IMG/VR virus record: IMGVR_UViG_2778261030_000021
Location: 1 to 7,900 of that record
DNA length: 7,900 nucleotides
DNA from: a virus
Taxonomy: Duplodnaviria; Heunggongvirae; Uroviricota; Caudoviricetes
Strand: one strand, 5' to 3'
The notes beneath the pieces were generated by a model. That model was not told the DNA's origin. It did no database searches and saw only the letters and a program-made list of their open reading frames with translations. The number at the start of each line of letters is the position of its first letter. Position 1 is the stretch's first letter. Below are positions 1 through 7,900 of the stretch, in pieces. Both the position numbers and the translations under genes were made by a program.

Positions 1-744
1 GGAAGGTTTAATTACCTGCAACGTACCAAAATCACGCTCTTTGTCGTTCTTCTCTGCACGGGGTACGGATAAAAAGCCTTTTGCTTTTTTGTCACCGTCG
101 CCCACAACCAGATCGCTTTCTTCGGTTTCCGTGAAGGTGTCGCCAATCTCGCCCGTCAGCCATGAAAGGATGTCCACATCGGAAAAATCCACGATTTCCT
201 GCGTGGTGCGCGGGTACGCATAGACCGGATACAGCTTAATGCTCACCTCGTTAATCTGCGGGGTGCTGGTCTGTTCGCGTGCCTTACCCTCTTCACCGTG
301 GTTAACGGTCGCACCGCCAGCGGAAACAAGCTGCTTAAACTCGTTGCTGCTGATTTTCTTCACGGTACAGATGCGGCGCATGGTGGATTCATCCGTCAGC
401 ATTCGCATGATTTCGGTGTTCAGTTCGGGGATAACGGTATAACCACCATCAGCGGGAACGCCTGTACTCAATGCGCGGGTTTCACCTGTCAGAATGTAGT
501 GACGTAGTTCGGCGGGGTCAGTGGTCTGGCTGTTTTTGCCTGGTTTACTGCGCTCTTCGTCAGCAACGGCCTCAAGGCGGGAGATGTCTTTATCGAGTGA
601 TTCAGCTTTAGCGCGTAATTCGTCAAATTTTGCGCCCTCAGCATCGTTAAGGCTGCGGTTTTCTTTTTCCGCGTTCTCCAGCATGTCGCGCATCTGATTT
701 TTAATGGCGGTTTTCTGCTGGCGTAATTCGATTATTCTCGGCAT
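1..744 (-). CDS. Major capsid protein, HK97-fold family (N-terminal ~248 codons; 3' end beyond window start)
   Basis: Minus-strand frame is open from ATG 744..742 to position 1 with no stop, so it is absent from the ORF track. Own translation: MPRIIELRQQKTAIKNQMRDMLENAEKENRSLNDAEGAKFDELRAKAESLDKDISRLEAVADEER... then ...GGYTVIPELNTEIMRMLTDESTMRRICTV...INEVSIKLYPVYAYPRTTQEIVDFSDVDILSWLTGEIGDTFTETEESDLVVGDGDKKAKGFLS. An N-terminal coiled coil followed by these motifs matches my recollection of HK97-type capsid proteins. AGGA lies 8 nt upstream of the ATG. Confidence 0.65.
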   Translation of the reverse strand, partial: MPRIIELRQQKTAIKNQMRDMLENAEKENRSLNDAEGAKFDELRAKAESLDKDISRLEAVADEERSKPGKNSQTTDPAELRHYILTGETRALSTGVPADGGYTVIPELNTEIMRMLTDESTMRRICTVKKISSNEFKQLVSAGGATVNHGEEGKAREQTSTPQINEVSIKLYPVYAYPRTTQEIVDFSDVDILSWLTGEIGDTFTETEESDLVVGDGDKKAKGFLSVPRAEKNDKERDFGTLQVIKPS

Positions 745-781
745 AAAAAAAGTCCTGGGGTTAAGTAAGGAACTCCAGGAC
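745..781 (-). promoter_or_regulatory. Hairpin (stem 752-758 / 775-781, GTCCTGG/CCAGGAC) followed on the minus strand by U7 (751..745) and then the capsid ATG; the capsid Shine-Dalgarno AGGA lies inside the 3' arm
   Basis: Directly read inverted repeat plus T-run. The geometry is that of an intrinsic terminator, but it ends 1 nt before the start codon and sequesters the RBS. Confidence 0.45.
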
Positions 782-956
782 GCGGCAAAAACTCAACCGT
801 TTTTCATAAGGAAATCAGCAATCGCACCGATCGTTTTCCCGCCTGGTAATGAATATTGGCGAGAACATTAACAGGCGGAAAAGTGGCCCCAGCGTCCTGG
901 CACCACGGGCGAGAATAATCATGATTCAGTTCGGGTAAAATATGCCGATCCGCTCA

Positions 957-986
957 GTGAACAACGTGGAACAACCACGAACAAAT
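957..986. repeat. Three 10-bp-phased direct repeats: gtGAACAACg / tgGAACAACc / acGAACAAAt
   Basis: Directly read; copies begin at 959, 969 and 979. Lies in the ORF-poor region upstream (minus-strand sense) of the capsid gene. Confidence 0.5.
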
Positions 987-1003
987 AATTTACAAAAAAT
1001 GAC

Positions 1004-1025
1004 AAAAAGCCGGATTTCTCCGGCT
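1004..1025 (-). terminator. Intrinsic terminator after the 74-aa gene (7-bp stem AGCCGGA/TCCGGCT, 4-nt loop, U-rich tail on minus strand)
   Basis: Hairpin 1008-1025 and A-run 1004-1008 on the plus strand give hairpin-then-U on the minus strand, 11 nt downstream of the stop at 1036-1038. Confidence 0.6.
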
Positions 1026-1035
1026 GTATGGGTGC

Positions 1036-1260
1036 TCAGTCCCTGATCCCTTTCAGAAATTCTATCAATGCATCTATCTGTTCAGGATTTACCGCCAGCA
1101 TTTCACCGGATAGAGCACATCTCACAAAACCATGCTGATCCTTTTCAATCAGTGCGCCCGTCTCCAGGAATGCGCGGTAATCATTGATGCTCATCGTCTC
1201 CATGTTGTCAGCATGGTATTTATCACGCTGTTTTAATATCTCATCAAATTTCATCGGCAT
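1036..1260 (-). CDS. Hypothetical acidic protein, 74 aa
   Basis: ATG at 1260 with AGAGGA about 9 nt upstream; own terminator downstream. No family recognised. Confidence 0.5.
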   Translation of the reverse strand: MPMKFDEILKQRDKYHADNMETMSINDYRAFLETGALIEKDQHGFVRCALSGEMLAVNPEQIDALIEFLKGIRD

Positions 1261-1356
1261 TGTTTTTTTCCTCTGTTGTGTCTGTTTGTTTCAGATAGTA
1301 ACTATGCCTGACCGTGACGAAAACCCGGTAATGCGCCATACCGTTTCAACTGGTGC

Positions 1357-1380
1357 AAAAAAAGCCGGATTTCTCCGGCT
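1357..1380 (-). terminator. Intrinsic terminator after the PerC-like gene; near-identical copy of the 1004-1025 terminator
   Basis: Same AGCCGGATTTCTCCGGCT hairpin (1363-1380) followed on the minus strand by U7 (1357-1363). A 24-bp core is shared between 1004-1027 and 1360-1383. Confidence 0.65.
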
Positions 1381-1386
1381 GTTTGA

Positions 1387-1659
1387 TTAGCTGTCCTGGT
1401 AATTGCGCCATATTTCATCACCAGCACCATCTATACCCATTTCGGCATAAGTGCGATCGACTGCCTTTTTCAGGTCTCCGAAATTATCCGGCGGCTCCGG
1501 TGCCCTCTGTGCCTTCCTTGAACATTCCAGCCGTCGCATCGTGATGTGATGCCGTTCCTTGTCTGTCTCCACCAGCTGCATGACTTCACCCCATCGCGCC
1601 GCCGCCCTCCGGTAAAAGCCTTTCGCCTCCAGTTCCTCCGCTATGCGGTCATGTACCAT
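1387..1659 (-). CDS. PerC-family-like small transcriptional activator, 90 aa (start moved to ATG 1659; the track ORF begins further upstream at a non-ATG codon)
   Basis: MVHDRIAEELEAKGFYRRAAARWGEVM... resembles the AEKLExKGLWRRAA signature I recall for PerC/Pch proteins. Strong SD GAGGGGGGG immediately upstream of ATG 1659. Confidence 0.5.
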   Translation of the reverse strand: MVHDRIAEELEAKGFYRRAAARWGEVMQLVETDKERHHITMRRLECSRKAQRAPEPPDNFGDLKKAVDRTYAEMGIDGAGDEIWRNYQDS

Positions 1660-1669
1660 CGTCCCCCCC

Positions 1670-2080
1670 TCAGAACGAAATATCATCACCGTAAGGGTCA
1701 TCGCCTCCCGCTGGTGGCTGATTACCCTGTGTGCCTGTGGTTTTGCGTCTGTTCCCGCCTGGACGTGCCGCGCGGGCACTGATTACGCTGTCTGCGATAA
1801 CCTGCCAGCCCTGCCGCGTTTCTCCGTTCTGTCCGGCCCACTGGCTTACCTGCATCGTGCCGGATACGCTGGCAACATCGCCTTTTTGATGTTTAGCCAG
1901 GAAGTCGGCCTGTTTGCCAAATGCGATGACCGATAACCATAACGTCGCCTGTCCGTCCTGTGCCTGGCTGCATGGCAACGATACCGCCATACGCGCCAGC
2001 GTCATCGGTGTGCCCTTGCTGGTCTGTTTTACCTGCGGGTCGTCCACCAGCCGCCCGTAAGCGGCTATCTGTGCCGTCAT
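1670..2080 (-). CDS. ssb: Single-stranded DNA-binding protein (SSB-like OB fold), 136 aa
   Basis: Pattern GRLVDDPQV...TLWLSVIAFGKQADFLAKHQKGDVASVSGTMQVSQWAGQNGETRQGWQVIADSV aligns by eye with E. coli SSB (G.L..DPE...W..V.FGK.AE...KG..V..G....W.D.G.R), and the acidic tail DDPYGDDISF resembles the SSB C-terminal DDDIPF tip. ATG 2080 with GAGAGGTGG SD; start overlaps the upstream stop (ATGA). Confidence 0.75.
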   Translation of the reverse strand: MTAQIAAYGRLVDDPQVKQTSKGTPMTLARMAVSLPCSQAQDGQATLWLSVIAFGKQADFLAKHQKGDVASVSGTMQVSQWAGQNGETRQGWQVIADSVISARAARPGGNRRKTTGTQGNQPPAGGDDPYGDDISF

Positions 2081-2322
2081 AATTCCACCTCTCCGGTTTT
2101 AACGTTGATGGTTGTTACCTGTTCCGCTTCGGCAATCTCCCGTTCTGTCAGCGTGGCAAAGTTTGCCGCTGCTGTGGTCATGAATGCGCTTATCAGTTCG
2201 GGATGTGCTTTCGCGTATCCTTCCCCGGCGTTGCGGTCGATGATTTTTATCGCCACCCTCAGCCAGTGTTCTGTCAAATCAAGGGCGTGAGATTGTGGTT
2301 TTTTGGCGTGCTTCGTTGTCAC
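2077..2322 (-). CDS. Hypothetical protein, 81 aa (GTG start)
   Basis: Codon at 2322..2320 is GTG with GAGGT about 9 nt upstream; stop overlaps the ssb start. No family recognised. Confidence 0.45.
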   Translation of the reverse strand: MTTKHAKKPQSHALDLTEHWLRVAIKIIDRNAGEGYAKAHPELISAFMTTAAANFATLTEREIAEAEQVTTINVKTGEVEL

Positions 2323-2367
2323 AGGCTTTACCTCACAGCAATAAAATAAAATTTTTGCATTTCAACC

Positions 2368-2597
2368 CTTCACCTGTTCACCTTTTGCAATTTTCCCTTT
2401 TTATTCATGATGTTAAGGGGTGAACAGTTTCACAAAAACTATTCACCAACTGTTCACCACTGTTCACCCTTAAAGCTCAATAAAGAATCAAAAAGGTGAA
2501 CAGTGAATAGTTTGGTGAACAGTTCATAAATAACTGTTCACCCTATAATATACTGATATAAAAGACATTTATTGCAGGCTGAACAGTGGTGAACAGT
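2368..2597. repeat. Iteron array: at least 9 full copies of the octamer TGTTCACC / GGTGAACA in both orientations plus partial copies; putative replication origin (P4 ori/crr type)
   Basis: Directly read: TGTTCACC at 2375, 2451, 2461 and 2536; GGTGAACA at 2419, 2495, 2514 and 2589; partials at 2368, 2441, 2503 and 2579. The array starts 13 bp beyond the primase stop. As I recall, TGTTCACC is the type I iteron bound by P4 alpha protein. Confidence 0.7.
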
Positions 2598-2609
2598 TAT
2601 TCCATAAGT

Positions 2610-4427
2610 TTAATTTTTTCCATCGTCATTTGTGACCGATGCACATGATGGCATCCAGTCTTCTGAATCCTCTGTCAGGGTCACATTTGAACGCAAACCG
2701 TGCTTCGTTTTCCGTTTCATATACTCCCTGCCATATTCCGCCATTGCCCCCGGCATATCTTTACCGAAGCGCGTCAGTGTTACAGGTTTACCGAATCCGT
2801 GTGCCCTCATATATGCCAGATAGGCGTGATAAAGATACCTGCGCGGACTGAACGGAATAATTTCGGCATTACCCACTAACAGACCATCACACATTACCGA
2901 CGACATGAGATAGCCGCAGAAGTCCACCAGCGAATCGCCCTCGCGTTTTATCACCAGAGCTTCTTCTGATTTCTGCTGCTCATACAGCAGGCGTTTAGCT
3001 TCGTCCTGGTCAGAAAAACGAGTAAGCAGGTGGCGAATCACAACCGCCAGCTCTCCTTCTATTTTTTCTGCCAGCATGGGGTCGCGTTCGTTTTCCGGTA
3101 CAACCTCCGAAAAATTGAATATCACCCGACGACGTGAAATCCCCCCGCTGCGGTCACTGAATGACATGGCGTTATTGTTCACCGCCAACACTACCGCCTG
3201 AATGCGTGTTGAGTAGGGGGCTTTATGCTTCGGGTCGATTGCCACCTTGTCACCGCCTGTAATGGCCTTAATTCCTGCGCCATCACCAGCGTAACGGGTC
3301 ATATCCGGCATGATAATCAGCGAAAAGCCAACCACTAACGCGCGTTCCCTGGCATCTTCCAGCGCCTTCATGCTTGCCGATACCGTGTTGGCCTTACCCG
3401 CCAGCATGGTGCAAATCTCCGCCATCACGCTTTTACCACTTCCCCCTGGACCTGTTACCTCAATGAATAACTGCCAGTCGTACCGGTTCGCCAGCACCAT
3501 GAATAATGCAGCCAGTACGCGATCCGCCTTGCGGTCATTCTCAGCCACCGAACGGCGTAACCACTTCCAGAAATTCGGCGCATGTGTTGCCAGCGTTTCC
3601 CCCTCTGCTGGTGGGCTGAAAGGTAATTCACTGGCAATTAACAACCAGTCGTTTTTGTTATGCTCCCGAAAATTACCTGTTCTGGTATCAAATACCCCGT
3701 TACTGAATCCAATCAGGTTACGGGCTGTATTCCCCATTACAGGCAAACTTAACTTCATGGTATCGACCGCCGATTTAATGGCGTTCTGCGAATAGCTGAT
3801 CTCCGCATCAATGAAAATCTGTGCCATAGCTCGCTGTAATTCTTTATCCTGTACTGGCTCCCATACAACGCCGTTGTAATGGTGAACAGTGTCAGAGTCA
3901 GCATGAATCGCCAGTTCACCGCCATAATGTGCCAGGAGAACTTCGCCGCGTTGACTTGCTCCCATCTGGTTAAGCGCCAGTGATGAAGCGTTATCGTCTT
4001 TTACCCGCTCTTTTTTCTTTACAGGCAGTTCAACTACCTTTTTCTTTTCCGCCTGCTCTGCCCGTTCACGTTCCAGATATTCGCGCCAGTTCTCCCGTTT
4101 CTGGCTGTGCATTCCTTCAGGGTAATAATCAGCATCCCTGACACCTGCCGCTGCCAGTTTCTGCCCGATGGTATTAACAAGCCCCGGACGCAATAACCCC
4201 GCCTGGTAGAGACGCACCCGATAGCGTCCGTCCGGTACGATTTGCAGCTTATCCAGTTCGGCAAGTTGTTGTTCTCCAAGCCAGACAGGAGGCACGCTGT
4301 CGCCAGCCAGTCGCCCGTCCTGTTCCTGCCACTGCTTCGCATGTGCCCACGCATCATTACCCGCAAAAATGATGACTTCCGTCATTTTGTCACGCGGCTG
4401 GTGTTTTAAATTTGGCGCTTTTTTCAT
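2610..4427 (-). CDS. Replication primase-helicase of the P4-alpha / D5 (SF3 helicase) family, 605 aa (start moved from track position 4442 to ATG 4427)
   Basis: Walker A TGPGGSGKS within a D5-like region. The track ORF begins at a GTG (4442); the first ATG (4427..4425, MKKAPNLKHQ...) has GGAGAGAG upstream and overlaps the stop of the preceding gene (ATGA). Confidence 0.85.
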   Translation of the reverse strand: MKKAPNLKHQPRDKMTEVIIFAGNDAWAHAKQWQEQDGRLAGDSVPPVWLGEQQLAELDKLQIVPDGRYRVRLYQAGLLRPGLVNTIGQKLAAAGVRDADYYPEGMHSQKRENWREYLERERAEQAEKKKVVELPVKKKERVKDDNASSLALNQMGASQRGEVLLAHYGGELAIHADSDTVHHYNGVVWEPVQDKELQRAMAQIFIDAEISYSQNAIKSAVDTMKLSLPVMGNTARNLIGFSNGVFDTRTGNFREHNKNDWLLIASELPFSPPAEGETLATHAPNFWKWLRRSVAENDRKADRVLAALFMVLANRYDWQLFIEVTGPGGSGKSVMAEICTMLAGKANTVSASMKALEDARERALVVGFSLIIMPDMTRYAGDGAGIKAITGGDKVAIDPKHKAPYSTRIQAVVLAVNNNAMSFSDRSGGISRRRVIFNFSEVVPENERDPMLAEKIEGELAVVIRHLLTRFSDQDEAKRLLYEQQKSEEALVIKREGDSLVDFCGYLMSSVMCDGLLVGNAEIIPFSPRRYLYHAYLAYMRAHGFGKPVTLTRFGKDMPGAMAEYGREYMKRKTKHGLRSNVTLTEDSEDWMPSCASVTNDDGKN

Positions 4428-4723
4428 TTCTGCTCTCTCCACGCGGCAATCATGTTTTTCAGTTCCTGTAGTTTTTTATCAACATCCATACATGACACAT
4501 GGTTATTTCTGGAAAGCGGGATTTCCCGCCTGAATCTGCTAATAAAGATCTCCACGTTCAGCGAACTATGAAATGAATAGCCATCACGAATAAAATACAC
4601 ACGGTCAAACATCAGTTCTTTTACCGTTACTCTGTTACCGTTCTTATCCAGATAAATAGCGCCGGGGATAATTTTGGGGTGTGCATAACCGCTGGCAGTC
4701 AAGCCAGATAAATACGTTCTCAT
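4424..4723 (-). CDS. Hypothetical protein, 99 aa, translationally coupled to the primase
   Basis: ATG 4723; stop TGA overlaps the primase ATG. No family recognised. Confidence 0.55.
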   Translation of the reverse strand: MRTYLSGLTASGYAHPKIIPGAIYLDKNGNRVTVKELMFDRVYFIRDGYSFHSSLNVEIFISRFRREIPLSRNNHVSCMDVDKKLQELKNMIAAWREQK

Positions 4724-4729
4724 GATTAT

Positions 4730-5050
4730 TTATCTCAGATTTGAATCAGTATTCGCTTTCTCTATGGCATTTAATGCATCTGTGGCATTTTCAATGGTGC
4801 ACCGTAACGAAATATCAAACTGCCCAAGCATTGCCAGTAACAAGCCAATATTACCCATGTCAATGCGCATAGCCTTTTCGTCATATTCCTCATTTTCTGA
4901 CGCATGCCACATCAGGCTACCAATTGACGAAACAGCCATTGATATATTGTCAGTAGCCCCATCCGCAGCGGAATAAACCTTTTTAGCAATATCATGCTCA
5001 CAGTTAAAATGCGGATTAATCAGGTACTGGTAATTGGTCATGTCAGGCAT
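4730..5050 (-). CDS. Hypothetical acidic protein, 106 aa
   Basis: ATG 5050..5048 overlaps the end of the upstream small gene. Strongly acidic composition (about 17 D/E against 7 K/R). Confidence 0.55.
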   Translation of the reverse strand: MPDMTNYQYLINPHFNCEHDIAKKVYSAADGATDNISMAVSSIGSLMWHASENEEYDEKAMRIDMGNIGLLLAMLGQFDISLRCTIENATDALNAIEKANTDSNLR

Positions 5051-5246
5051 GGAACACCCCCTGACGAATACGGGCGGCGAATACCATCACGCAGCCATCA
5101 GGAGATTGCTGACGCGCGTCCTGTTCGCTGGTGGCCTCAATGGTAATCACGCGCGGTTGTGCCGTGCTCAGGGCGATAAAACGCCAGATGTATTTATTCA
5201 GGTTGTGCGAGTCCCGCCCTTGCGGGTGTGTGGTATGATTTAACAT
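5043..5246 (-). CDS. Small first gene of the leftward operon, 67 aa (possibly Icd/Kil-like; function uncertain)
   Basis: ATG 5246..5244 with GAGGT 5-6 nt upstream; MLNHTTHPQGRDSHNLNKYIWRFIALSTAQPRVITIEATSEQDARQQSPDGCVMVFAARIRQGVFHA. It is the C-terminal 67 codons of the 341-aa track ORF, which I reject as a whole. The Icd-like guess rests on position only. Confidence 0.5.
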   Translation of the reverse strand: MLNHTTHPQGRDSHNLNKYIWRFIALSTAQPRVITIEATSEQDARQQSPDGCVMVFAARIRQGVFHA

Positions 5247-5342
5247 AGCTACCTCGATATTCTTGCTATCGTTGGTGGTTAGACGCCCGGTTAGTGTTAG
5301 CGCACTGCCGGGTTTCGTCGTTTCTGCACCTTGCATCAACAA

Positions 5343-5396
5343 GGTGTTTAACACCAATTTAAGCCCTGGTGTTAAACACGTCAAGTGTTGAACACT
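5343..5396. promoter_or_regulatory. Three 13-bp palindromic operator-like sites (G/A)GTGTT-N-AACAC(C/T) in the divergent promoter region
   Basis: Directly read: 5343-5355 GGTGTTTAACACC (perfect), 5368-5380 GGTGTTAAACACG (one mismatch), 5384-5396 AGTGTTGAACACT (perfect). The third overlaps a plus-strand -35-like TTGAAC (5388-5393), with a weak -10 CATACT at 5411-5416. Confidence 0.55.
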
Positions 5397-5445
5397 TATT
5401 TTTTTTCCTGCATACTGCATTTGTTTTTTGTAAGGGGTACACAAC

Positions 5446-5625
5446 ATGGCGACAAAAGCAGTAAACGCAAAATCACAAACAGTTGCGGCAAGGGTTCCGC
5501 ATGAAGTTATGAACAATGTTGAGGCGGTAAAAATGCCTGGTGAAAGTACAGGGCAGTTTGTAACAGCAGCATTAAAGCGAGAAGTTGAATACCGCCAGCG
5601 TCGCAAGGCCAAAGAGCAGGAATAA
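5446..5625 (+). CDS. Small DNA-binding protein, probable ribbon-helix-helix fold, 59 aa
   Basis: Below the track's size cut-off. ATG 5446 with AAGGGG 8 nt upstream; MATKAVNAKSQTVAARVPHEVMNNVEAVKMPGESTGQFVTAALKREVEYRQRRKAKEQE. Beta-strand (TVAARVP), helix, Gly turn, helix pattern typical of Arc/CopG-type proteins. Confidence 0.5.
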   Translation: MATKAVNAKSQTVAARVPHEVMNNVEAVKMPGESTGQFVTAALKREVEYRQRRKAKEQE

Positions 5626-5682
5626 CCATCACCAGCGCCGTGGTGTAAGGTATTACGGCGCATTGCTATGCAGGACAACACA

Positions 5683-5856
5683 ATGACCGATAAAGAATTG
5701 ACCAAAACATTATCACCGGCACGGAAAAGACGGCGCAGAAAGATAGAGCATGAATCAGAAAGATTCGCGCCATGTGCTTTTGCCCTTGAGCAATTCCTTA
5801 AAGAGTACAGGGAAAAGCGCTCATTGCAGGTATGGCAACGAACTGAACCAGACTGA
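5683..5856 (+). CDS. Hypothetical Arg-rich small protein, 57 aa
   Basis: ATG 5683 with AGGA 7 nt upstream (the track's longer ORF starts at 5668). Contains ARKRRRRK; rare AGA/AGG/CGG codons. Confidence 0.4.
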   Translation: MTDKELTKTLSPARKRRRRKIEHESERFAPCAFALEQFLKEYREKRSLQVWQRTEPD

Positions 5857-5950
5857 TAGCATTGCCCACCAGCCTGATAGCGACTATCATTGCCGTTCTT
5901 ATGTTTGGGATCACACACACAAACGGCGCAGCGGGTTATCTGTTCAGAAA

Positions 5951-5979
5951 GGCGGCTCCATTTCGGGGCCGCTTTTTTT
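5951..5979 (+). terminator. Intrinsic terminator of the plus-strand two-gene unit
   Basis: Stem 5952-5959 GCGGCTCC pairs with 5965-5972 GGGGCCGC (one G-U), 5-nt loop, then T7 at 5973-5979. Confidence 0.7.
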
Positions 5980-6120
5980 ATTCCTGAAAAACCCCAATTT
6001 TGTTGTTTTTCAGTTTCACCAGGGCGAACGAATCCCCGCCCACGTTCGGGCGCATATTCAATCTTCATGGTTATATCTCTGTATTAGTGGATGTGTGGCG
6101 GCTGCGTGCCGCCAGCGTGA

Positions 6121-6309
6121 TTAATGAACTGCCTTGCAGCTATCCTTCCAGGCCAGAACCTCGGATAAAGACCAGCCAACGGAACGACCGCCAAGTTTAC
6201 GACGTGATGGGAATTGTCCGGCCTTTTCCAGGCGGTAGCGGCATGAGCGGCTAAGGCCTGTTAGCTTTTCGCATTCTTTTTCACGTATAAACCGATCAGT
6301 GCTTAACAC
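6121..6309 (-). CDS. alpA: AlpA-family phage transcriptional regulator / excisionase-like HTH protein, 62 aa (GTG start)
   Basis: EKLTGLSRSCRYRLEKAGQFPSRRKLGGRSVGWSLSEVLAW matches the AlpA signature I recall (TG.SRST.Y......FP....LG.R.V.W...E...W). GTG at 6309..6307 with AAGGGG 5 nt upstream; no in-frame ATG is available. Confidence 0.8.
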   Translation of the reverse strand: MLSTDRFIREKECEKLTGLSRSCRYRLEKAGQFPSRRKLGGRSVGWSLSEVLAWKDSCKAVH

Positions 6310-6590
6310 TATTGCCCCTTTCGTTTCTTAAAGAGTTATTTCGTGTTCTATTGCGTTGGGATGTGTCTGATTGTGTCAGGATGATTCAGAGTTGGCAAAT
6401 GTTGAGGACGTATGGTTTACAGAAAGAGGAATAATCAGGATAAAATCATTTAAATTCATGTTAATACAAAGGCATAAAATATTGTTTCATGCCTTTTTTC
6501 TCGCTATTTAAAGAGTGATTCGCTAGTGTATAAAAAACCAGTAACACATTAAAAATCAGCCACTTATAAATCTGTACACTTTTTCGCCTC

Positions 6591-6640
6591 TTGTTCGTAG
6601 TTGTTCCGCATTGTTGCTCATTGTTGCACGTTGTATCTGT
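6591..6640. repeat. Five 10-bp-phased direct repeats beginning TTGTT (TTGTTCGTAG / TTGTTCCGCA / TTGTTGCTCA / TTGTTGCACG / TTGTATCTGT)
   Basis: Directly read, exact 10-bp register, between the integrase stop and the alpA upstream region. Confidence 0.5.
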
Positions 6641-6649
6641 TCGCATATC

Positions 6650-6665
6650 CAGTATGCGCATACTG
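6650..6665. repeat. Perfect 16-bp palindrome CAGTATGCGCATACTG
   Basis: Directly read. Lies 18 bp beyond the integrase stop and is flanked by A/T runs. Confidence 0.55.
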
Positions 6666-6682
6666 AAAAAATACGAAAAAAA

Positions 6683-7900
6683 TTATTTTCTTCTGGCTAC
6701 TGGTAGCGTGGTTACGTTTTCATGTGTTCCCGCCAGTATCCCTAACCGCTCCATCCACATATCCAGCGCATTGCGTTTAGCATCCAGATAACGGGAATGA
6801 TTATAAACTCGCTGCATTCCTGGCATCTGGTGGCCTGTAAGCTGCTCCACGACATGCGGATCAACGCCTAAATCGTTCAGCATGGTTGTAAAGGTGCGCC
6901 GGATGTCATGCAGTGACCAGTGAGGGTGATTAAGCCTCCTGTGCGCTAATCTTCCATACTGCGATACGCTGGCCTCCTGTTTCACTGCCCCCAGCAATAA
7001 GCCCGTGTGCCTGTTCTGCTCCACCAGCTGCGTGACGAACGGCAGGATCGCTTCCGGTATGGGCCGGAATATTGCGACCTTCGTTTTGCTGTGCTCCTTC
7101 GGAACGGTCCATAGCATTTCCGTAAAATCCCACTCCCCGATCTCTGATAACCTCAGTTCTACCGTTCTGGCTCCGAAGACAATCAGGAGGCGGATTAACG
7201 CGACGTAGTAAGGGGAAAATATTTTTTTATCCAGCGCCTGCAATAACTCGCCCAGTTCTTTGGTGCTTAAGACACGTTCGCTTATATCCGGTTTTTTCCC
7301 AACGTCCGCCACGTTCAGATCGTCCAGAACGTTGCTGATTGCATAGCGCCGCCTACGGCAGAACTTAAGCGCCTGTTTGCACGCCTGTAGCACGAATCCG
7401 GCAGTAACAGGCGTTCGCTTTGCCACCTGGTCAAAACAGGCCAGCCAGTGCCGTAGCTCGCATTTATCCAGCGGCATAGCACCAATCTGCTGTATTACGT
7501 GATTATTAAGTCGCCTTTTCAGGGCGATATAATCCACGCGGTTTTCCTTTACGTAAGACTCAAGCCAGTAGGTGAGCGCATCGCCAACCGTTACGGGCTT
7601 TAACGCTTCCTGTACGGTGTAATTCATCTCATGACGTGGATTTTTCCCCTCAGCCAGCCATGCGCGGCACTGGGCGGCTTTTTCCCTGGCTGCTTTCAGA
7701 CTCAGATCAGGATAATTTCCCAGCTTAATACGTTCCGGTCGTGTCTCTCTTCCCGTTCCTGCCCTGTAAGTGAAATACCAGGTTAATTTCCCTGATGTTA
7801 AATATTTCACGCTCAGATTTCCGCCATCGCTATAAAACGTGTTTTTCTCCGCTGGCTTACCATGAAGTTTCCTTAGCAATGTGTCGCTCAGTTTGTTCAT
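6683..7900 (-). CDS. int: Tyrosine recombinase / phage integrase (P4-type), 405 aa
   Basis: 405-aa ORF starting with ATG exactly at the window edge (the true start could lie upstream). Integrase-like C-terminal region including HDIRRTFTT and the tail ...MQRVYNHSRYLDAKRNALDMW with candidate catalytic Tyr. Confidence 0.88.
   Translation of the reverse strand: MNKLSDTLLRKLHGKPAEKNTFYSDGGNLSVKYLTSGKLTWYFTYRAGTGRETRPERIKLGNYPDLSLKAAREKAAQCRAWLAEGKNPRHEMNYTVQEALKPVTVGDALTYWLESYVKENRVDYIALKRRLNNHVIQQIGAMPLDKCELRHWLACFDQVAKRTPVTAGFVLQACKQALKFCRRRRYAISNVLDDLNVADVGKKPDISERVLSTKELGELLQALDKKIFSPYYVALIRLLIVFGARTVELRLSEIGEWDFTEMLWTVPKEHSKTKVAIFRPIPEAILPFVTQLVEQNRHTGLLLGAVKQEASVSQYGRLAHRRLNHPHWSLHDIRRTFTTMLNDLGVDPHVVEQLTGHQMPGMQRVYNHSRYLDAKRNALDMWMERLGILAGTHENVTTLPVARRK

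Follow-up and report, generated by a model that had tools for sequence, protein, structure and literature searches.

A small gene held between two near-identical terminators raises the question of whether it was recently and independently acquired, in the manner of a phage moron, or is an exchangeable part of the element that carries it. We examined such a gene in IMG/VR record IMGVR_UViG_2778261030_000021, of which positions 1 to 7,900 form the window (the whole stretch of DNA that was analysed, 7,900 nucleotides (nt); all coordinates refer to it unless another locus is named). Here a 74-codon open reading frame (ORF), orf74 (1036-1260, minus strand), lies between a PerC-family gene and a major capsid gene, and an earlier sequence-only reading had described it as an insulated, independently acquired unit with its own promoter region. 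Our analysis indicates that the window is part of an EcCIEDL933-type capsid-forming phage-inducible chromosomal island (cf-PICI) of Escherichia coli, and we consider it likely that a 355-bp unit, composed of a 98-nt leader, orf74 and a single copy of the terminator, serves as an optional accessory-gene cassette where the early (replication/regulation) operon of such elements meets the late (capsid) operon.

Two copies of one predicted terminator bracket orf74

The 24-mer AAAAAGCCGGATTTCTCCGGCTGT has exactly two exact plus-strand copies in the window, at 1004-1027 and 1359-1382, a two-copy match found in 0 of 200 dinucleotide-preserving shuffles. The sequence-only reading had recognized both exact 24-nt copies, although its placement of the second (1360-1383) was off by one. 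With one mismatch the repeat lengthens to 27 nt (1004-1030 and 1359-1385), and the repeat finder gives a start-to-start distance of 355 bp. Genes in this part of the window all run on the minus strand, and on that strand both copies read AGCCGGA-GAAA-UCCGGCU followed by a U-run, giving an 18-nt hairpin with a 7-bp stem (5 G-C pairs), a 4-nt loop and a folding free energy (dG) of -12.0 kcal/mol.

The copy directly 3' of the PerC gene (T2; 1359-1385, core 1359-1382, minus strand) begins 4 nt past the PerC stop codon and its stem-loop is followed by UUUUUUU (U7), and the copy 3' of orf74 (T1; 1004-1030, core 1004-1027, minus strand) begins 8 nt past the orf74 stop codon and its stem-loop is followed by UUUUUGUCAUUUUUU (U5GUCAU6). 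A terminator scan calls both copies on the minus strand, and the local folds are more stable than those of shuffled sequences (T1, z -2.6; T2, z -4.3 at -17.7 kcal/mol). By sequence, then, T1 and T2 both have the anatomy of an intrinsic terminator, with a G+C-rich stem-loop and a U-tract just past a stop codon, bearing out the earlier observation of one terminator after the PerC gene and one after the 74-codon ORF; both hairpins are on the coding strand. Across 16 distinct cassette alleles the stems of T1 and T2 are invariant, each copy varying at 1 of its 18 stem-loop positions (a loop base); in the same alleles, 14 of the 19 sites in the spacer between the stop codon and T1 are variable.

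The cassette is present or absent as an exact unit

Relatives that lack the cassette precisely between the terminator copies do exist, as the sequence-only reading had proposed to check: E. coli C3, EC-1639 and 2012C-4502 each carry a single terminator. In E. coli C3, the same late-operon leader (99.6% identity) and a PerC gene 95% identical to that of the window are separated by one terminator, with the 355-bp unit absent to the base, and an uninterrupted PerC-terminator-late leader arrangement without the cassette is present in C3, EC-1639, 2012C-4502, strain 48, CFT073 and KY208. The tightest pair comprises 2012C-4502 (empty) and the filled elements of JNE132847 and 94-3024, whose PerC and capsid proteins have identical accessions. 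Such near-isogenic filled and empty pairs are ready material for testing the role of the gene. Because the cassette is bracketed by direct terminator repeats, filled and empty elements differ by exactly one repeat unit; for instance, the single terminator of one empty locus (L064) combines the 5' flank of the upstream copy of a filled locus (L005) with the 3' flank of its downstream copy. The orf74 cassette is thus an extra gene between genes that are adjacent in relatives, as a moron is.

In a census of 5,426 complete E. coli genomes, with counts inflated by heavily sequenced O157:H7 clones, the cassette occurs in 539 genomes (592 places) and the PerC backbone in 726 (821 places). The cassette is joined to a window-type PerC end in 518 genomes, and the remainder fit a diverged allele class. 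All 38 full loci among the IMG/VR loci found through orf74 read PerC-terminator-orf74-terminator. In a neighbour-joining tree built on PerC, each of the three major clades mixes filled with empty elements, and the nearest filled relatives of empty elements share 95.7-99.6% PerC identity with them; the cassette state has therefore changed at least three times on this tree, flipping repeatedly in different backbones.

The terminator marks module boundaries and mosaic breakpoints

Elements with any of three unrelated capsid modules (HK97 type, major-capsid-plus-decoration type and ClpP-capsid fusion type) carry this hairpin after PerC, and wherever the capsid module differs from that of the window, homology to the window stops exactly at the U-tract (3') side of T1. 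Nor is the hairpin confined to PerC: among 80 viral contigs sampled by terminator motif, it follows PerC in 32, SSB in 25 (gap of 18 nt), orf81 in 7 (gap of 21-30 nt) and the primase gene in 3. Both repeats of the window are, as predicted terminators, copies of the lineage's standard Rho-independent-type early-operon terminator, whatever the last gene of that operon is.

Elements with an alternative capsid module carry a third terminator core (GCCGGAGAAATCCGGC plus a T-run; 5515-5538 in locus L033, also in L042 and L054) after a 137-aa (amino acid) late gene, so that one terminator sequence is reused at several module junctions. In these three loci, the third copy precedes a 144-aa ORF with no assigned identity that opens the next gene block.

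Pairwise comparisons place changes in identity at the same sequences. Against O157 strain 3384 (L004), the window is 98% identical in the late leader, 99.6-100% in the cassette, 93% in PerC and 94% in SSB, with a homologous late module (95%), and the identity breakpoint with O157-type elements falls at T2. Against strain 7784 (L003), the late leader shows no homology and the late module is unrelated, with identities of 99-100% in the cassette, 100% in PerC and 99% in SSB. On these alignments, the terminators are mosaic breakpoints, with the cassette keeping its linkage to PerC in one comparison and to the late module in the other. The cassette co-occurs with D5-primase, DUF927 and RepA-helicase replication modules, and a single genome holds up to five related places.

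A length of 24-27 nt is enough for direct repeats to support short-homology and slippage deletions. Homologous recombination or replication slippage between the two terminator copies would delete the cassette, and homologous exchange between co-resident satellites would restore it or move it between backbones; repeat-mediated loss and exchange would be the simplest mechanism for the observed polymorphism.

orf74 encodes a conserved protein of a satellite-specific family

The orf74 product is acidic (pI 4.87, net charge -5.3), as are nearly all of its homologues. The sequence-only reading had called it acidic with no recognizable family, and this stands for Pfam, NCBIfam and PADLOC, none of which holds a matching family, although the protein does belong to PHROG family phrog_1957 (E 7.1e-42, residues 1-74 against an 82-position profile), which is without assigned function. 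Homologues at 92% identity or more are essentially restricted to E. coli, and one source lists the identical protein in 16 Enterobacterales entries. An exhaustive HMMER search recovered 21 representatives at E <= 1e-3, most of them 66-106 aa long and 35-43% identical to orf74, with Y28 and Q61 invariant in the alignment and the motifs DHHGF and LSGE..A.N.EQ.D.LIE.L in common. The same search matched a 1,383-aa repeat protein (P0019) through seven weak stretches, which we dismissed as a repeat-driven artefact. A tblastn search of 50,697 phage genomes returned no orf74 homologue.

Relative to an allele 93% identical, orf74 shows 7 synonymous and 6 non-synonymous differences (dN/dS 0.22), and among the 16 distinct alleles 16 of 75 third codon positions are variable, compared with 10 of 150 first and second positions, patterns that mark orf74 as a real gene under purifying selection. 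A single-sequence AlphaFold model was poor (pLDDT 57), and the alignment-based model was used in its place; this one is confident (pLDDT 85.8) and predicts three helices, a three-stranded sheet and a C-terminal helix (alpha3-beta3-alpha), with no fold match in the PDB or among viral structures. By these searches, the orf74 family is uncharacterised and satellite-specific.

The protein is acidic and small, lacks a nucleic-acid-binding signature and occurs independently of the type of replication or capsid module, and for these reasons we would tentatively expect it to bind a host or helper-phage protein, rather than DNA or a specific satellite partner. A bolder version, which we regard as speculative and improbable on present evidence, is that the family is an unrecognised satellite-specific factor with a new fold acting in satellite-helper conflict at the early/late junction of cf-PICIs, for example by inhibiting, as a small acidic protein, a host or helper-phage target protein (with a role in interference, in anti-defence or in controlling when capsid production is switched on). 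It would have been retained across cf-PICIs of Enterobacterales and Orbaceae, and the terminator-bracketed, easily deleted E. coli form would be a way to toggle that function.

orf74 homologues occupy the same position in other genera

Homologues were located in 13 loci from Gilliamella, Serratia, Enterobacter, Phytobacter, Leclercia, Kluyvera, Citrobacter, Erwinia, Pectobacterium and Rahnella, using a sub-alignment of 5 sequences for the locus search, the full set of 18 having proved too diverse. In 12 of the 13, the homologue has a replication module on one side and, on the other, an HK97 capsid gene with about 60% identity to that of the window; several loci have it as the first gene past an iteron origin and lack PerC, SSB and a terminator upstream of it. 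Occupation of the same slot in about ten genera, together with the absence from 50,697 phage genomes, argues that orf74 is native to the satellite lineage, making the earlier claim of independent acquisition doubtful.

Downstream of the homologue and before the capsid leader, other genera carry diverse reverse-oriented cargo, which makes this position a satellite accessory hotspot beside which orf74 is, in those genera, the conserved gene. In a Citrobacter freundii metagenome-assembled genome (L018, 3085-4642, minus strand), the interval between the orf74 homologue and the capsid leader holds the PADLOC candidate system PDC-M18A/B (E 2.9e-71 and 7.8e-23); in other genera unrelated reverse-oriented ORFs lie there.

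The E. coli arrangement itself is also old. The 93%-identical allele (pS 0.155) belongs to the most diverged PerC clade and has both terminators intact, from which it follows that the terminator-orf74-terminator arrangement is not recent, contrary to the recent insertion first envisaged. With orf74 in the gene pool of the lineage and the 93% allele co-diverged with its PerC clade, the foreign origin expected of a moron is not what we find. In E. coli-type elements orf74 was found only after PerC and its terminator, as would be expected if PerC provided the flanking homology for its spread through homologous recombination. Deletions recurring across the direct repeats would account for the polymorphism at least as well as insertion.

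A constrained leader with a candidate promoter precedes orf74

The 98-nt orf74 leader (1261-1358, minus strand) spans the intergenic interval from T2 to the ATG. The sequence-only reading had assigned orf74 its own promoter region; the 63 nt before the ATG do prove to be constrained, but a strict consensus scan of 600-2700 found no sigma-70 site on the coding strand, and the best match in the leader under permissive settings reaches only 7/12, with a -35 element TTTTCG (1323-1318), a 17-nt spacer and a -10 element TACTAT (1300-1295). Past the -10 element comes an A/C-rich stretch of 5' untranslated region (5'UTR) and then a Shine-Dalgarno (SD) sequence, GAGG (1273-1270), 9 nt before the ATG. 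In the 16 alleles, 3 of the 63 positions from the candidate -35 element to the ATG (1261-1323) are variable, compared with 8 of the 39 leader positions that follow T2; the 63-nt segment is less variable than both this 5' part of the leader (Fisher p = 0.02) and the third codon positions of the ORF (p = 0.006). This low variation indicates that a constrained non-coding element reaches well beyond the ribosome-binding site, and it is compatible with a weak or factor-dependent promoter plus 5'UTR.

The G+C content is about 42% across 1101-1400, compared with 54-61% in PerC and SSB and 52-56% in the capsid gene. In two further respects, a base composition unlike its neighbours' and a downstream factor-independent terminator (by sequence), the cassette accordingly resembles a moron. 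The orf74 leader and the late leader have no motif in common, their best local alignment being no better than those of shuffled sequences, and so provide no evidence of co-regulation. Rfam searches returned nothing at or near the cassette.

Overlapping this region, a 42-aa 'hypothetical protein' in RefSeq (WP_001301569.1; 1302-1430, minus strand) runs across the PerC 3' end and T2, and in O157 strains the interval is annotated as a frameshifted 'trigger factor' pseudogene; this ORF is probably spurious, because 1-nt indels between alleles break its frame.

A probable optional cassette at the early/late junction and its rivals

In the arrangement we favour, T2 would end the AlpA-dependent early operon, orf74 transcription would probably start at the weak promoter in the 63-nt segment (TTTTCG-17-TACTAT, with a transcription start site near 1288), and read-through of T2 from the induced early operon would add to it. 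T1 would insulate the late (capsid) operon, the conserved leader of which begins immediately beyond T1, and the 24-27-nt repeats would make orf74 easy to lose and to exchange. Several observations weigh against this reading or parts of it. The terminators and the promoter are predictions from sequence; the promoter match is weak (7/12) and is missed by the stricter scanner, and the constraint on the 63 nt could reflect a 5'UTR or a translation signal, not a promoter. The homologue in other genera has no upstream terminator and lies straight after the origin, in line with the primase, a placement more in keeping with an early-operon gene than with an autonomous unit. The sequences, the terminator loop variants (TTTC and TTGC) included, do not settle the direction of change, insertion or deletion, and the genome census carries the clonal inflation already described. 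Finally, the proposed protein-binding mode leans only on charge, size and module independence, fold and family searches being all negative.

The strongest rival, which we hold to be a real possibility if a somewhat less probable one than its negation, is that orf74 is an ancestral tail gene of the early operon, expressed only on induction through partial read-through of T2 as an attenuator, with the empty elements being deletion derivatives. The co-oriented homologue of other genera, placed directly after the origin and primase without an upstream terminator, is what this predicts, as are the failure to find a consensus promoter, the nesting of empties among filled elements at up to 99.6% PerC identity, and direct repeats whose 24-27 nt are, on established knowledge, adequate for deletion. 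It sits less easily with the quality of T2 as a predicted terminator (7-bp stem, dG -12, U7) and the invariance in which both copies are kept, with a constraint before the ATG that extends well past the ribosome-binding site, and with a cassette 99-100% identical between diverged backbones, which points to exchange as well as loss. That same identity, across backbones whose PerC differs by 7%, can also be read as the mark of a classical moron, that is, a foreign gene recently and independently acquired, with a promoter of its own that is active in the uninduced island and a benefit of the lysogenic-conversion type for the host. The position between genes adjacent in relatives, the terminator downstream of orf74, the G+C content below that of the neighbours and the constrained 63 nt with their weak -35/-10 match all agree with it. 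We nevertheless think this rather unlikely: a family endemic to the same cf-PICI-like slot in about ten genera and absent from the phage genomes searched is not foreign, the arrangement is old, since the most diverged PerC clade already has it in the form of the 93% allele between two terminators, and no strong promoter was found by the strict scan.

Two further explanations have very little to commend them. Hairpin repeats acting as recombinase sites, with ORF-plus-hairpin units inserted and excised as in an integron, would produce exact boundaries of presence and absence and the same hairpin after several different genes, both of which are seen. Integron cassettes are characterized by an attC-like site of about 57-141 bp with paired core sites, by an IntI integrase and by cassette arrays. 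The repeat here is just 24-27 nt, an 18-nt simple hairpin plus U-tract with the anatomy of a terminator; the window encodes no IntI-type integrase, its sole recombinase being a P4-type tyrosine integrase at the far end; no multi-cassette arrays were seen; and orf74 occurs only after PerC and its terminator, as expected for linkage through homologous recombination. We therefore rejected an integron-type cassette as highly improbable. Slimmer still is the chance that orf74 is a fortuitous ORF in a non-coding spacer between two terminators: the ORF is small and without a curated family, but the dN/dS of 0.22 and the excess of variation at third positions, a good SD sequence 9 nt upstream, full-length homologues at about 35-45% identity with conserved motifs, a confident alignment-based AlphaFold model and the phrog_1957 match effectively refute it.

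Comparison with known modes of accessory-gene variation

Reportedly, phage morons were defined by Hendrix and Juhala from comparisons of HK97 and HK022. The cassette shares with them the single extra small gene between genes adjacent in relatives, the factor-independent terminator downstream, the atypical G+C content and a candidate promoter upstream. It differs in that its host element is a satellite (a cf-PICI) and not a phage, in that the orf74 family is endemic to a satellite slot and not imported, with promoter and lysogen expression here at candidate level, and in that copies of the early-operon terminator of the element itself flank it on both sides.

A second parallel is with lambdoid phages, in which modules are said to be exchanged at short conserved boundary (linker) sequences, as in the Susskind-Botstein modular theory and in comparisons of HK620 with other lambdoid phages. 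Here, too, a short conserved gene-boundary sequence coincides with mosaic breakpoints, homology to unrelated capsid modules and diverged PerC alleles breaking exactly at the terminator; the difference is that the boundary is a functional-looking terminator, duplicated round one gene to give a simple on/off polymorphism.

Accessory and defence hotspots have been described in P4-like satellites (Rousset et al. 2022, PMC9122126), and accessory regions in PICIs. The orf74 locus resembles these in its fixed position between conserved modules, with cargo varying among otherwise similar satellites, and in the varied reverse-oriented cargo of the slot in other genera, including the PADLOC candidate PDC-M18. 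Unlike such cargo, orf74 matches no defence model in PADLOC and is co-oriented with the operons, and in other genera it is a conserved gene beside the cargo and not cargo itself.

Taken together, the cassette is a moron-like accessory unit with modular exchange at boundary sequences, of a kind already known, and its protein family is unstudied. Recognised only recently as a class of satellites, cf-PICIs move between species and have so far been studied for their packaging genes alone; the cassette exposes a form of variation in them, a reused terminator that serves as both module boundary and recombination joint and yields a clean one-gene on/off polymorphism. As a conserved, satellite-only small protein without a known fold or characterised family, the orf74 product is a tractable candidate for a new satellite-helper or satellite-host interaction; if it is dispensable cargo, the locus would be an example of ordinary phage-type mosaicism.

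The host element and its gene layout

On the minus strand, the gene order of the window is integrase, AlpA (PF05930), DUF4222, D5/P4-type primase (D5_N/Pox_D5), iterons, an 81-aa ORF, SSB, PerC, T2, orf74, T1, a 259-nt leader and the start of the HK97 capsid gene. The integrase ORF (6683-7900, minus strand; 405 aa) encodes a P4-type tyrosine integrase at the far end of the window. The PerC-family gene (1387-1659, minus strand; 90 aa; PF06069, E 3.9e-43), which carries the annotation PerC family regulator in related elements, is the last gene of the early/replication operon before the cassette. The 5' part of the HK97-family major capsid gene (1-744, minus strand; PF05065, E 6.8e-27), the first gene of the packaging module, is cut by the window end; in relatives it is annotated as a phage major capsid protein with the HK97 prohead protease next. 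The late-operon leader (745-1003, minus strand; 259 nt), from T1 to the capsid start codon, is the downstream boundary of the cassette and lies outside it. Over 700-1800, the window is 99.9% identical to an E. coli O26:H11 locus (capsid, then HK97 prohead protease) and 96.6-97.4% identical to O157:H7 loci.

An integrase, alpA, a primase with an origin and an HK97 capsid of its own, with the remaining packaging module beyond the window end, are the features that define a cf-PICI, and by its gene content the window is an EcCIEDL933-type cf-PICI of E. coli. The architecture is typified by EcCIEDL933 (bioRxiv 10.1101/2022.09.08.507074), with which the window shares int, alpA, primase/rep, a PerC-like gene, an HK97-type capsid module of its own and a host element from Shiga toxin-producing E. 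coli; PerC-like genes are common in Gram-negative PICIs (PMC11773190). No link could be drawn between orf74 and the 'hypothetical gene 1792' of EcCIEDL933. The EcCIEDL933 paper covers packaging genes alone and leaves the small gene and terminators undescribed, and these cf-PICI papers make no mention of orf74, a function for PerC or the terminators (bioRxiv 10.1101/2022.09.08.507074; PMC11773190, which has neither the small gene nor the terminators).

Dense direct and inverted GGTGAACAGT iterons lie downstream of the D5/P4-type primase gene at 2397-2611, a field that is the probable replication origin; weak Rfam microRNA matches at the same positions are artefacts of the inverted repeats. From alpA to a 106-aa ORF (5043-6120), coding is ambiguous, a 341-aa minus-strand ORF without a match to the families tested standing against plus-strand ORFs of 59 aa (5446-5625) and 62 aa (5668-5856). 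A SymR-like Rfam match at 5247-5319 (plus strand) falls below threshold (28 bits against a gathering score of 61, E 0.036).

Features of the late-operon leader

The late leader is conserved from E. coli to Gilliamella, with an invariant TTTGTAAATTATT about 250 nt upstream of the capsid ATG, directly after T1; in the window this motif lies at 981-997 (plus strand, ACAAATAATTTACAAAA). In other genera, the leader contains an internal hairpin with compensatory changes. No Rfam family matches the late leader, which could comprise a late promoter/operator and a structured leader RNA.

At its capsid end, a strong hairpin at 745-790 (minus strand; GUCCUGGAGUUCC...CCCCAGGAC, dG -17.9, z -3.5) is followed by U7 abutting the capsid ATG (744-742), and the only SD-like AGGA before this ATG is in the 3' arm of the hairpin. 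The hairpin found here in other genera differs in sequence (GGUUUC...GAAACC) and stops 4-6 nt short of the capsid ATG. The 745-790 hairpin may control the late operon, either by sequestering the SD sequence or as an attenuator.

Just downstream of T1, within the late leader, three 9-10-bp direct repeats in helical phase (GTGAACAAC, GTGGAACAAC and CACGAACAA; 957-984, plus strand) resemble the origin iterons GGTGAACAGT, and short unannotated matches to them occur in other E. coli genomes. Satellite P4 has an ori/crr pair of TGTTCACC iteron clusters, and the 957-984 repeats together with the origin iterons are reminiscent of such paired clusters.

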